Shown: one piece after another, positions 10,217 through 12,026 of the stretch
Numbering within the stretch: the first letter of the stretch is position 1
Layout: every line of letters starts with the position of its first letter
Program-made: the position numbers and the translations under genes
Sequence record: PP925842.1
Source of the DNA: Escherichia phage KookSpook
Reading direction: 5' to 3' (one strand)
DNA: 64,000 bases
Notes under the pieces: model-generated
The model's input: the letters and a program-made list of their open reading frames with translations, nothing else
Told to the model about the DNA's origin: nothing
The model's database searches: none

Positions 10217-10379
10217 TCTAGAAAATATGCTTATAGAGCAATGGAACTCTGGATATAATGCTGGAGTATCTGCTTGTATTGCTGGATTAGACATGCTTAT
10301 TAAACAAGAAAGGGTACGTCCTGAAGAAGCAATTTTACTCCGAGATATTATCGAGGGATTTAAGCGGGGGGTAGTATAA
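10185..10379 (+). CDS. Hypothetical early protein (64 aa)
   Basis: Overlapping ORF in the operon. Confidence 0.45.
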   Translation: MDFLNQNLKSNLENMLIEQWNSGYNAGVSACIAGLDMLIKQERVRPEEAILLRDIIEGFKRGVV

Positions 10380-11197
10380 TGCGTAGGCTAATTATTATTA
10401 GTGGTGCAGGTTTAAGTGTTGAAAGCGGCGTACGCGCATTTCGTACTGACTCCAGTACTGGTAAAGCGATGTGGGACGAGTTTAATATTGAAGAAGTATG
10501 CAATATTCATACCTTTTTAGGAGATTGCTACCACAAAACTCATGAGTTCTATAATAAACGCCGTGAAGAACTAGAAACTGTTGAACCTAATCTTGCCCAC
10601 CTTCGTATTGGTGAGTGGTATAAACGGTATCCAAATCAAGTAGTAAACCTTACTACCAACGTTGATGACCTTATTGAGCGTGCTGGCGTTCCACATAGTG
10701 ACATTCTGCACATTCATGGATATTTAAAAGAGGTTGTTGTAGCTGATAGCTACAATAGTAGCAATAAACGGATTATTAATGTAGGGTACAATTCTATTGA
10801 CCCAGATGATTATAAATGGGTTAAACCTAATGTAATCTTCTTTGGGGAGCATGCTCCAGCATATGCAGAAATGTACAATGTTTTTGATGGTATTACCAAT
10901 CAAGATATGATCATTGTGGTTGGTTGCTCTAACCAAGTAATTAACTTCTATTGGGAATTATTTCCTGTTCTTAATTTGACTGCTGCCAAATTAATGGTAG
11001 TTAACTACTATGATAGTGCCCTAGCGGCAGAGCCAGGCTATCAAGGTATGACTCGTAGTGAGATGTACCAGTTGGAAGAACGTGGTGTCCCTTACTGGAG
11101 TAAAGGTGCGGTGGATGCTTTCAGTGACCCTGATTTTATTGCTCGTGTGGAAGCTCATTTAGAGGATAGACCTTATGTGCCAGGAAGCAATAAATAA
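10379..11197 (+). CDS. Sir2-family (sirtuin-like) NAD-binding protein lacking the zinc ribbon
   Basis: Sirtuin motifs in order: GAGLSVESGVRAFR, PNLAHLRIGEW, TTNVDDLIERAG, LHIHG, VKPNVIFFGE, MIIVVGCS. The four-Cys zinc module normally after the catalytic His is absent. Confidence 0.8.
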   Translation: MRRLIIISGAGLSVESGVRAFRTDSSTGKAMWDEFNIEEVCNIHTFLGDCYHKTHEFYNKRREELETVEPNLAHLRIGEWYKRYPNQVVNLTTNVDDLIERAGVPHSDILHIHGYLKEVVVADSYNSSNKRIINVGYNSIDPDDYKWVKPNVIFFGEHAPAYAEMYNVFDGITNQDMIIVVGCSNQVINFYWELFPVLNLTAAKLMVVNYYDSALAAEPGYQGMTRSEMYQLEERGVPYWSKGAVDAFSDPDFIARVEAHLEDRPYVPGSNK

Positions 11198-11360
11198 TGA
11201 ATGGGATATTTTTATAACCGAATCTGGTATTTGGTGTTATAGGTTTGCCTATAGATTTGCTAGTGTAAAAGAAAGATTGGGCAATACATATAAAATTATC
11301 TATACTACGGAGGATATATGGTTATCCTCCGGAGAGGGGGGAAAACAAATATGTCCATAG
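11175..11360 (+). CDS. Small protein with DIF-x-GxWCYR motif (61 aa)
   Basis: RBS GAGGA upstream; shares the motif DIFxxxxGxWCYR with the next ORF. Confidence 0.4.
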   Translation: MCQEAINNEWDIFITESGIWCYRFAYRFASVKERLGNTYKIIYTTEDIWLSSGEGGKQICP

Positions 11361-11533
11361 TTAAATCTGTGTATACACACCCTGATGATATATTTGTATG
11401 GGCGGATGGTAGTTGGTGTTATCGCTGTGAACTATGGGAAATGGATTATAAATCTGATGACTATGGTGTCATATATACTGATACGGTTGAGTATGATAAG
11501 TTCTTAGAAAGGAACAAAAATGGAAATAAGTAA
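11351..11533 (+). CDS. Small protein with DIF-x-GxWCYR motif (about 60 aa)
   Basis: ATG at 11351 is preceded by GGAGAGGGGGG. Sequence MSIVKSVYTHPDDIFVWADGSWCYR is paralogous to the previous ORF. The longer ORF start at 11318 lacks an RBS. Confidence 0.45.
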   Translation: MSIVKSVYTHPDDIFVWADGSWCYRCELWEMDYKSDDYGVIYTDTVEYDKFLERNKNGNK

Positions 11534-12026
11534 TACTCCGATTATTTTTCTAGACATTGATGGGGTGCTCAATTCTAGCATCTCTCACCACCATGCACCT
11601 GACGATGAAAAGATCTTCTTCGGGGGTGATTGGGTTTTTAAACCGCTTCTCAAGGCTTTTCAGGATTTTATTCGTCCCTCTTCAATAATGATTGTTGGGG
11701 TATCTTCATGGTTTTCTGTTAAAAATGAGATGGAGAACGTTCGGATTATGACCGGATTAGGTCTTATCGATCGTTTTTTAGGTACAACGGATTTTACTGG
11801 TGGTGGATTATCTAGGGGTAATTCTGTACTTAGGTTTGTAGAAAAACACAAACTTAAGCACTGGTGTGTATTGGATGACGCTGGCGCTATGATGTATCAG
11901 TATCCTACAGTTATAGTCAATGGTAAGACTGGTATAAATCTTCAAGATCTAATGGCTGCTCGCTATATGCTGGAGTTTAGTCCAGAGCTTGAGATGTGTA
12001 AATCATTACAACAATTTAAGGTATAA
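11520..12026 (+). CDS. HAD-superfamily phosphatase-like protein
   Basis: 168 aa; HAD motif I FLDIDGVLN near the N-terminus and a later VLDDAG aspartate pair. Confidence 0.55.
   Translation: MEISNTPIIFLDIDGVLNSSISHHHAPDDEKIFFGGDWVFKPLLKAFQDFIRPSSIMIVGVSSWFSVKNEMENVRIMTGLGLIDRFLGTTDFTGGGLSRGNSVLRFVEKHKLKHWCVLDDAGAMMYQYPTVIVNGKTGINLQDLMAARYMLEFSPELEMCKSLQQFKV

Follow-up and report, generated by a model that had tools for sequence, protein, structure and literature searches.

Which reaction does a phage sirtuin catalyse when it retains the NAD pocket of its family but not the zinc ribbon? The question is raised by a 272-aa protein encoded in the window, i.e. the 64,000-nucleotide stretch of the T5-like Escherichia phage KookSpook (PP925842.1) that was analysed here. 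A sequence-only reading had placed the gene in a group with two mini-genes and a HAD phosphatase and had leaned towards NAD+ consumption. Our best explanation, to which we give a probability of roughly 40% as a whole, is that the protein is a catalytically competent, zinc-independent sirtuin, acting as an NAD-dependent deacylase of proteins and encoded in a tightly packed operon.

The Sir2 gene and its HAD neighbour had already been described, so that finding them is a re-discovery. The T5 gene T5.102 has been annotated as Sir2 since 2005 (T5 name 'cobB', Sir2-like protein). Zinc-less phage Sir2/CobB proteins were noted in 2016, when a role as a host-protein deacetylase was proposed (PMC5107563), and in 2022 a Tpt1/KptA-like RNA-repair role was predicted for the neighbourhood of sirtuin and 'Swiss-army-knife' HAD in T5-like phages (PMC9503650, in the passages on this neighbourhood). 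Our literature search returned only computational proposals for phage Sir2, and no experimental study or published assay. The earlier statement that no function had been published is thus correct for experiments but overlooked these two proposals.

We confirmed four ORFs (Sir2, mini1, mini2 and HAD) on the + strand at window positions 10379-12026. The unit to which they belong is larger than had been noted, being a ten-gene run (9401-12862) with a promoter-like site on its 5' side and a terminator hairpin on its 3' side. Its features are as follows.

9308-9345, + strand: terminator hairpin after nrdD, a stem-loop with a T-run (-14.5 kcal/mol), which separates nrdD from the Sir2 operon
9344-9372, + strand: promoter-like site read from the sequence (TTGCTT, 17-nt spacer, TATAAT)
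9401-9640, + strand: small gene, 79 aa, phrog_7953
9637-10017, + strand: 126-aa gene, T5.100 orthologue, phrog_11748, dN/dS 0.22 against T5
10010-10216, + strand: small gene, 68 aa from the ATG at 10010, T5.101 orthologue, phrog_5236
10185-10379, + strand: small gene, 64 aa, phrog_5827, its stop codon overlapping the Sir2 start (TAATG)
10379-11197, + strand: zinc-free sirtuin, 272 aa, class III-like, T5.102 orthologue, phrog_2162, Pfam SIR2
11175-11360, + strand: mini1, 61 aa, phrog_5116, with a 23-nt overlap with the 3' end of Sir2
11351-11533, + strand: mini2, 60 aa, phrog_5116, with a conserved ATG and Shine-Dalgarno sequence
11520-12026, + strand: HAD phosphatase of the 'Swiss-army-knife' RNA-repair type, 168 aa, T5.105 orthologue, Pfam HAD_SAK_2
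12029-12457, + strand: DUF7415 protein a, 142 aa, T5.106 orthologue, Pfam DUF7415 (E 8.4e-31), phrog_2502, dN/dS ~0.05
12464-12862, + strand: DUF7415 protein b, 132 aa, T5.107 orthologue, a paralogue of DUF7415 protein a
12887-12909, + strand: Rho-independent terminator hairpin closing the operon, CCGAGTCA-AAA-TGACTCGG then TTTT (-17.1 kcal/mol)

In the T5 annotation, terminators are found at the positions equivalent to both hairpins, and the early promoter T5P31 at the position equivalent to 9344-9372, which is probably the early promoter of the Sir2 operon. Sir2 and HAD are separated by 322 nt within one operon. Together with the mini-genes they are under purifying selection (dN/dS ~0.10 for Sir2 and ~0.05 for HAD). 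An NAD-dependent DNA ligase of the phage itself is encoded 8 kb downstream.

A profile search, which had been named beforehand as a possible refutation, placed the 272-aa protein inside the sirtuin family: it matched Pfam SIR2 (PF02146) with E 1.2e-24 and 87.7 bits (cutoff 24) over profile positions 1-178 of 180. All the NAD-binding and catalytic motifs of sirtuins (GAGxS, F-R loop, xNxD, HG His, FGE, GxS and distal Asn) were located, as the sequence-only reading had claimed, in the form of GAGLS (residues 9-13), FR (21-22), TTNVD (92-96), HIHG (111-114), KPNVIFFGE (149-157), VGCS (181-184) and VVN (207-209). In an alignment of 42 clade sequences the invariant residues were G9, A10, G11, S13, F21, R22, Y58, R61, N94, D96, H113, G114, F154, F155, E157, G182, S184 and N209. 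Across the clade there is no variation in the NAD pocket, in the catalytic His113, in Asn94/Asp96, in the FGE loop or in the anion-binding pair Tyr58-x-x-Arg61 typical of class III.

The closest solved sequence was CobB (E 1.4e-17), and the nearest solved set consisted of CobB, Sir2-Af1 and SIRT5. The class III Tyr-x-x-Arg signature, a motif for binding acidic acyl groups, is present: FYNKRR aligns with FYNARR of CobB, with Y58 and R61 corresponding to CobB Y92 and R95. Two CobB positions altered in the Ac2/Ac3 variants among the PDB matches, A76 and I131, correspond to C41 and V95 here (the offset in CobB numbering was obtained by comparing wild-type and A76G chains with the PDB entry titles). 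The protein is not a CobB orthologue, since it matched the NCBIfam CobB equivalog models at 88 bits, far below the cutoff of 320. By sequence and fold its closest relatives are class III enzymes, and the phage-restricted clade is best explained as a derivative of class III sirtuins of the CobB/SIRT5/Sir2-Af1 type.

The absence of the four zinc-binding cysteines was also borne out. Cysteine occurs only three times in the protein, at 41, 50 and 183, and never in the 33-34-residue segment between HG and KPxV that takes the place of the Cys4 zinc ribbon of sirtuins. In 75 homologues the same segment contained between zero and two cysteines, never four. The AF2 model (pLDDT 91.7) has a three-stranded sheet in the small domain (pLDDT 92-97), so that in the model the ribbon is replaced by a confidently predicted, cysteine-free beta module. 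Canonical sirtuins become inactive when their zinc site is engineered away. This counts against a competent zinc-free enzyme, and the small domain must therefore be stabilised by other means.

Foldseek comparison of the model gave canonical sirtuins for all of the top 50 matches. Defence Sir2 structures and SirTM both ranked below every deacylase class, and none of the PADLOC defence-Sir2 families matched the protein at E <= 0.01. Of the suggested likeness to NAD-consuming Sir2 domains, the shared absence of the zinc ribbon stands, but the protein is more like deacylases than like NADases, both by sequence and by predicted fold.

The two mini-ORFs are related, as had been noticed from their common motif (DIFITESGIWCYR against DIFVWADGSWCYR), for which a six-frame translation of the window shows no further occurrence. 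Pairwise BLASTP gave E 6e-5, and both matched phrog_5116 (E 1.4e-20 and 1.5e-29). For mini2 the mechanical ORF begins at 11318, while the start that is conserved and has a Shine-Dalgarno sequence is the ATG at 11351; from there the gene runs to 11533 and encodes 60 aa. This protein is the core phrog_5116 member (consensus DDIFVWxDGSWCYRxE...KSDDYxVIY). Their dN/dS values (0.04-0.19 for mini1, 0.03-0.11 for mini2) mark both as real genes. Close relatives carry zero, one or two copies. The two-gene state is a lineage-specific duplication that is not fixed, mini1 being a tandem duplicate in some T5-like phages only. In the unrelated phage 7-11 a phrog_5116 mini-gene again overlaps the Sir2 stop, so that this arrangement occurs in two unrelated phage lineages, and the Sugarlandvirus copies match phrog_5116 as well. 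Given the copy numbers and the overlap in phage 7-11, we regard the mini-genes as recurrent, facultative partners of Sir2. Their absence from some close relatives, and the occurrence of a relative in a phage without any Sir2, count against the partnership.

The next gene is indeed a HAD phosphatase. It matched Pfam HAD_SAK_2 (PF18143) with E 2.2e-20 and 73.9 bits (cutoff 27.5), and both the motif I DxD and the motif IV DD of this type are present. LDIDGVLN, SSW, TGGGxSRG and VLDD, including D12, D14, S62, S63, D119 and D120, are invariant relative to T4-like homologues (31-34% identity). HAD lies beside Sir2 in 28 of 31 Demerecviridae-type loci; Sugarlandvirus and two others retain Sir2 without it. 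The DUF7415 pair was present in all 31. HAD is thus dispensable in part of the family and the DUF7415 pair is constant. With HAD missing from three loci and a variable number of mini-genes, the four genes form a looser module than had been implied.

Outside the window, 449 phage records matched the region at the DNA level. The Sir2 clade is phage-restricted: a search of 185,579 species genomes gave a single match, and this lay on a phage-like contig. Hundreds of enterobacterial phages have conserved the gene, T5-like, V5/Mydo-like and 7-11-like ones among them, and in some other phages nicotinamide salvage genes adjoin it.

According to the T5 annotation the operon lies behind an early promoter. 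If the protein is a deacylase, as we tentatively favour, it would use NAD+ stoichiometrically, stripping a modification from a macromolecule with release of nicotinamide and an ADP-ribose derivative, and would not deplete the NAD+ pool. The likeliest substrate would be acyl-lysine on host or phage proteins, including acidic acyl groups such as succinyl and malonyl. Early removal of these groups may reset the acylated metabolic and gene-expression machinery of the host. The phrog_5116 protein could serve as a facultative partner, for example a specificity or regulatory subunit, and the HAD phosphatase may act on a phosphorylated end or a phosphorylated by-product. The phage's own NAD-dependent ligase and the nicotinamide salvage neighbours in other phages fit controlled use of NAD rather than its destruction. 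Further points count against a deacylase: the Gln of canonical TQNID is Thr in every member of the clade alignment, the gene context consists of nucleic-acid end-processing enzymes and does not point to protein acylation, and the host already has CobB.

The main rival, possible but on balance unlikely, was proposed for exactly this sirtuin and SAK-HAD neighbourhood by Iyer, Burroughs, Anantharaman and Aravind in 2022 (PMC9503650, in the passages concerned). Here the sirtuin would repair RNA ends like Tpt1/KptA: the 2'-phosphate of a cleaved tRNA or mRNA would attack C1'' of NAD+, after which the His-activated ribose 2''-OH would release RNA 2'-OH and ADP-ribose 1''-2'' cyclic phosphate. The role of HAD would be to remove terminal phosphates or to take the phosphate off the ADP-ribose by-product, and the two enzymes would act against anticodon nucleases and RNase toxins of the host. 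The established two-step mechanism of sirtuins formally parallels the Tpt1 reaction, and a phosphate could fit into the invariant anion pocket formed by Tyr and Arg. HAD was identified independently as HAD_SAK_2 with intact catalytic motifs, and T5-like phages carry ~24 tRNA genes. Gene context elsewhere also favours RNA repair. In 11 V5/Mydo-type loci Sir2 lies within a run of Metallophos, T4-type RNA ligase 1 (Rnl1), cREC (in most) and kinase genes, followed by a DNA ligase (in a twelfth, on a short contig, only kinase and ligase are visible), and in phage 7-11 a phosphoesterase is encoded ~1.4 kb downstream of Sir2. However, we found no homologue or annotated copy of the V5-type RNA ligase, cREC or kinase in T5 positions 1-89,000 or in the window, so that in T5-like phages the pathway would lack its sealing, kinase and cyclic-phosphodiesterase steps. 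The Sir2-HAD adjacency amounts to little more than one evolutionary observation because it comes from one phage family of high synteny, in part of which HAD is missing. A fold search with DUF7415 gave no RNA-binding signal, and Sir2 itself is nearest to protein deacylases in sequence and fold. To our knowledge RNA is not an established substrate of any sirtuin. A bolder version, which we consider a little less probable again, is that the zinc-free clade contains the first sirtuins acting on nucleic-acid ends rather than on acylated proteins. They would use NAD+ to free cleaved or modified tRNA of 2'-phosphates or of some other blocking group, anionic or acyl, as a convergent replacement of Tpt1/KptA with phrog_5116 as dedicated small subunit, in counter-defence against RNA-targeting toxins of the host.

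We consider it improbable that the protein is an NAD+ glycohydrolase, hydrolysing NAD+ during takeover or pre-empting or decoying NAD-dependent host defences, which was the direction preferred by the sequence-only reading. Defence NADase Sir2 domains also lack the zinc ribbon, the protein has the catalytic Asn and His on which they too rely, and nicotinamide salvage genes near Sir2 in several phages could offset consumption. Against this stand the PADLOC and fold results, the stand-alone 272-aa domain without sensor or partner, a ligase of the phage that itself depends on NAD+, and the invariant Y-x-x-R acyl/anion pocket, for which a plain NADase has no evident need. Equally improbable is a SirTM-like ADP-ribosyltransferase that modifies a host protein or nucleic acid during takeover. 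The RefSeq note for T5 lists 'ADP-ribosylase' among possible activities, but no Macro domain appeared in the Pfam matches of the ten operon proteins, the class III deacylase signatures are conserved in the clade, and SirTM ranked low in the fold comparison.

Should the protein be a deacylase, phages would actively rewrite the host acylome early in infection; should it act on RNA ends, sirtuin chemistry would extend to nucleic acids and a new counter-defence. On either reading this would be a natural sirtuin of canonical type that folds without zinc. The present analysis adds the grouping of the enzyme with deacylases and not NADases, the mini-protein as a recurrent but facultative partner, the dispensable HAD against the constant DUF7415 pair, and the lack in T5-like phages of the ligase and kinase that the RNA-repair model needs.

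Compared with known systems, the protein shares a zinc-ribbon-free Rossmann core and the catalytic Asn and His with the defence Sir2 NADases (ThsA, DSR1/DSR2, Sir2-HerA, SIR2-APAZ/pAgo and Avs5). Their structures are no nearer to it than deacylases are, and no defence-type partner (SLOG, HerA, pAgo/APAZ, STAND and similar) was found fused to it or in its operon, where the neighbours are small proteins, HAD and DUF7415. SirTM differs in having an adjacent or fused macrodomain. Tpt1/KptA RNA 2'-phosphotransferase may be a functional analogue, with its NAD+-dependent two-step removal of an anionic group and a gene context of RNA-end healing; its fold is unrelated (ADP-ribosyltransferase superfamily), so the likeness is analogy and not homology. 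The class III deacylases compared are human SIRT5, A. fulgidus Sir2-Af1 and E. coli CobB, the last a proven deacetylase, desuccinylase, demalonylase and lipoamidase (PMC8556138). From these the phage protein, at only 22-26% identity, differs by the missing Cys4, the Gln to Thr change in TQNID and an extra segment at about residues 210-240. The Sir2/CobB proteins of Vibrio phages KVP40, phiSt2 and phiGrn1 (Skliros et al. 2016, PMC5107563), likened to ours by their description, are also zinc-less with a conserved catalytic His. They belong to another, T4-like phage family and are linked to NAD salvage genes; the sirtuin was modelled on CobB, and T5 was listed as a carrier of the gene. The type 3 'RNA-repair' neighbourhood of Escherichia phage SP15 (Iyer et al. 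2022, PMC9503650) is a viral-clade sirtuin adjoining a SAK-type HAD, which is the gene pair seen here and occurs in the same group of phages, and the prediction made for it in those passages applies directly here. The same passages mention neither the phrog_5116 mini-genes nor the DUF7415 pair, and our results go beyond them in the dispensable HAD and the missing ligase and kinase partners. Closest of all is T5, where a similar gene had been suspected: T5.102 is an 88% identical orthologue that likewise lies between nrdD and the replication-origin-binding gene, in an operon of the same order. Nothing material differs; upstream, the window also has two small genes, of 79 aa and 64 aa, that T5 lacks in its annotation.

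The operon extends beyond 10379-12026, the stretch covered by the sequence-only reading. Between a promoter-like site and a closing hairpin we found ten closely spaced genes, in several places with the stop codon of one gene overlapping the start codon of the next: four small genes (79, 126, 68 and 64 aa), then the sirtuin (Sir2), two mini-genes, a HAD phosphatase and two DUF7415 genes.

Features of the operon and its flanks
7427-9301: nrdD, anaerobic ribonucleotide reductase, upstream flank
9308-9345: terminator hairpin after nrdD, -14.5 kcal/mol
9344-9372: promoter-like site, TTGCTT-17-TATAAT
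10379-11197, + strand: Sir2, 272 aa
11175-11360, + strand: mini1, 61 aa
11351-11533, + strand: mini2, 60 aa
11520-12026, + strand: HAD phosphatase, 168 aa
12029-12457: DUF7415 protein a, paralogue of b
12464-12862: DUF7415 protein b, paralogue of a
12887-12909: closing hairpin terminator, -17.1 kcal/mol
13403-16270: replication-origin-binding/helicase gene, downstream flank

The operon is one that T5 annotates as early (T5.100 to T5.107, with an early promoter in front and a terminator at the end), and the window runs collinear with T5 starting at about 46.5 kb. With eight related phages for comparison, Nei-Gojobori dN/dS came to about 0.10 for Sir2, 0.04-0.19 for mini1, 0.03-0.11 for mini2 and about 0.05 for both HAD and DUF7415a; these are real genes under purifying selection. 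At the DNA level, 449 phage records matched the 4.1 kb around 10379-12026, T5 with 85% identity and, best, the unannotated T5-like genome MG065692.1 (97.7%, window 9300-13400). The label of this record, 'Campylobacter phage C13', does not fit its content, a T5-like genome of an enterobacterial phage, and the matches include a few 'Listeria' records as well; wrong host labels or contamination are likely. Window segments 395-909, 18789-19064, 29992-30464 and 35335-39366 had no counterpart between 40 and 89 kb of T5. The largest falls where the L-shaped tail-fibre gene is located; the small ones probably reflect homing-endonuclease or other small genes that are present in one genome and absent from the other.

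A profile search placed Sir2 in Pfam SIR2 over the whole profile (87.7 bits, cutoff 24), with GAGLS, FR, TTNVD, HIHG, KPNVIFFGE, VGCS and VVN all present, bearing out the proposed sirtuin NAD pocket. The segment between HG and KPNV is the site of the Cys4 zinc ribbon in canonical sirtuins. None of the three Sir2 cysteines lies in its 33-34 residues, as had been noticed from the sequence, and 75 homologues had 0-2 there, never four, so that the zinc site has been lost clade-wide. Among proteins of solved structure, those closest in sequence were E. coli CobB (E 1.4e-17), Sir2-Af1 and SIRT5. NCBIfam CobB models matched far under their cutoffs, and a CobB orthologue was therefore rejected. A deep search returned 148 relatives; among the 120 matches listed, identity was at least 48% and the named relatives were phage proteins or came from phage-sized contigs. 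The whole catalytic set was invariant in a 42-sequence clade alignment, as were Tyr58 and Arg61, which align with CobB Tyr92 and Arg95 (numbering offset derived from wild-type and A76G chains compared with PDB entry titles) and form the class III Y-x-x-R motif. In SIRT5 and CobB this motif binds acidic acyl groups. Sir2 combines a competent NAD pocket, the catalytic His and a conserved class III anion/acyl pocket with a zinc-free small domain. The Gln of canonical TQNID is invariably Thr across the phage clade (TTNVD; T93, window 10655-10657).

The AlphaFold2 model is confident (pLDDT 91.7, pTM 0.89) and shows the former zinc module as three strands (pLDDT 92-97). The best 50 Foldseek matches in the PDB were all canonical sirtuins, CobB first.

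Structural ranking against Sir2
Sir2-Af1, class III deacylase: 21.4
PfSir2A, class III deacylase: 19.3
SIRT2, SIRT1, SIRT4, Hst2, yeast Sir2, deacylases: 16.4-18.0
SirTM, ADP-ribosyltransferase: 14.8
PsSIR2, defence Sir2: 13.7
ThsA, defence NADase: 12.3
Sir2-HerA, defence NADase: 12.2 and 11.7
Avs5, defence Sir2: 9.8

Missing zinc aside, Sir2 therefore has the build of a deacylase, not that of the NAD-consuming defence domains. The earlier reading towards an NADase is not supported (deacylases 16.4-21.4, defence Sir2 proteins and NADases 9.8-13.7), and no PADLOC defence model matched Sir2.

The two mini-ORFs do share DIFxxxxGxWCYR (BLASTP E 6e-5), which was not found elsewhere in the window, and both belong to phrog_5116 (E 1.4e-20 and 1.5e-29), making them paralogues. 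Members of the family follow the consensus DDIFVWxDGSWCYRxE...KSDDYxVIY, of which the C-terminal half has been lost in mini1. For mini2 the true start is ATG 11351, behind a strong Shine-Dalgarno and annotated identically in T5, giving 60 aa. We compared the Sir2-HAD junction in phages that share 88-91% Sir2 identity with the window. Most loci carry one mini-gene; the window, T5 and loci L002, L004 and L015 carry two, L007, L014, L018 and L019 none, and L020 and L030 a single divergent copy together with a gene for a hydrophobic 61-aa protein. In these last two, of Epseptimavirus type (5864-6145 and 3676-3861), the unrelated, probably membrane-spanning protein (MVKKIFKGIWKGLVWFVNLIGMITIYSLF...) occupies the second slot. 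Junctions are clean, the cassette lying between ...CAGGAA|GCAAT... and ...ATGGAA|ATAAGT..., with ...CAGGAA|ATAAGT... in genomes lacking it and the overlapping start retained either way. Gain or loss is exact at GGAA microhomologies (window 11160-11560; 5780-5850 in both L014 and L003). Of the four loci without a mini-gene, three have a HAD beginning MCQEISNTP (MCPE in L007), from the ATG that mini1 uses in the window (MCQEAINNE).

Overlap between a phrog_5116 gene and the Sir2 stop codon recurs independently in Salmonella phage 7-11, a podovirus of ~90 kb that is unrelated and has a Sir2 of only 56% identity. Between two near-identical contigs of the 7-11 type, the mini-gene differs by a frameshift after ...MSMD (L069 816-1001, L070 10719-10949), so that the products have 61 and 76 aa and end differently at the C-terminus. 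A relative of the family (phrog_28040) is present in Erwinia Kolesnikvirus FIfi106, and no Sir2 was found anywhere in that genome. The mini-protein is thus, in our view, a partner that recurs with Sir2 but is facultative, not obligate.

The next gene is indeed a HAD phosphatase (HAD_SAK_2, 73.9 bits), with motif I (LDIDGVLN), SSW, TGGGxSRG and motif IV (VLDD) invariant even in comparison with T4-like homologues that share 31-34% identity. RefSeq names it 'Sir2 (NAD-dependent deacetylase)' in T5 (T5.105; L001 4303-4809) and many relatives, which therefore show 'Sir2 (x2)'. The Sir2-labelled phrog_18062 gave E 7.9e-54 on HAD residues 77-168 and only 1.4e-05 on the real Sir2; the name is apparently a misannotation that has been propagated. 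In phage 7-11 (L070 11529-11957), a 142-aa phrog_4256 protein encoded about 0.8 kb downstream of Sir2 has HAD-like DFDDT and WIDDSP motifs and no Pfam match, and is a candidate HAD; a relative's annotation lists a 'putative 5'-nucleotidase' for this stretch.

We fetched 59 viral loci encoding clade members and probed their flanks. In other phages the clade is repeatedly associated both with NAD salvage genes and with phosphoesterases or RNA-end enzymes. Demerecviridae-type loci (31 of 59) have NrdD just upstream of Sir2, with DUF7415 in 31/31, HAD in 28/31 and a mini-gene in 25/31; Klebsiella phage Spivey (Sugarlandvirus) has one mini-gene, two DUF7415 genes and no HAD at the Sir2 locus. Twelve loci are V5/Mydo-type, with nicotinamide phosphoribosyltransferase and PRPP synthetase upstream and NADAR downstream. 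In 11 of them Sir2 lies within a run of Metallophos, T4-type RNA ligase 1, cREC (most) and AAA_33 kinase, then DNA ligase; in the twelfth, a short contig, only kinase and ligase are visible. The remaining 16 mostly have none of these neighbours. One is Escherichia phage ECO340P2, with a gene of the anti-CBASS/anti-Thoeris sponge family Acb2/Tad1-hairpin (L027 1940-2215) ~3.8 kb upstream of its clade gene and no RNA-repair genes near the two. In 185,579 bacterial and archaeal genomes the only match was a phage-like, distant T4-like contig (L098 4664-11669: NADAR, one ORF without assignment, NAMPT, Sir2, endonuclease VII, NrdD, NrdG). NrdD thus recurs near clade genes in T5-like phages (window 7427-9301), in this contig and, within 1.4-4.1 kb, in loci L093 and L091, which could be a real link or mere clustering of nucleotide-metabolism genes.

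Beyond the pocket, zinc loss, operon position and gene associations, we infer the mechanism. We tentatively favour (probability about 0.4) an NAD-dependent lysine deacylase that would strip acyl groups, acidic ones included, from host or phage proteins early in infection, because everything measurable on the protein itself points to it. CobB deacylase activities are documented (PMC8556138). Somewhat doubtful is the published RNA-end repair model, in which, as proposed by Iyer et al. 2022 (PMC9503650), the sirtuin would remove RNA 2'-phosphates in the manner of Tpt1/KptA. It accounts better for the neighbours, but its basis is context, and partners supplying ligase, kinase and cyclic-phosphodiesterase functions are missing in T5-like phages: neither a detectable homologue nor an annotation for the V5-type RNA ligase, cREC or kinase was found in T5 1-89,000 or the window.

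Three points make a plain NADase improbable: the ranking by structure, conservation of the acyl pocket and the NAD-dependent ligase that the phage itself encodes (in T5, a DNA ligase 8 kb downstream of Sir2). We give equally little weight to a SirTM-like ADP-ribosyltransferase, given the missing macrodomain and lower structural similarity. The lysine deacylase remains our preferred reading.

The elements described in the sequence-only reading were all confirmed, but the locus is a re-discovery: this phage gene neighbourhood had been annotated and discussed before. The similar gene suspected in T5 is T5.102, annotated Sir2-like since the T5 genome papers. The sequence-only reading knew of no published function; full-text searches turned up no phage sirtuin that had been studied biochemically or genetically, but two proposals are in print. 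Skliros et al. 2016 (PMC5107563) modelled a Vibrio-phage homologue on CobB, reported no zinc ligand in it and proposed deacetylation of host enzymes, with T5 on their list. Iyer et al. 2022 (PMC9503650) place viral sirtuins in 'a distinct clade' with three neighbourhood types, among them the sirtuin and SAK-HAD pair of the T5-like phage SP15.
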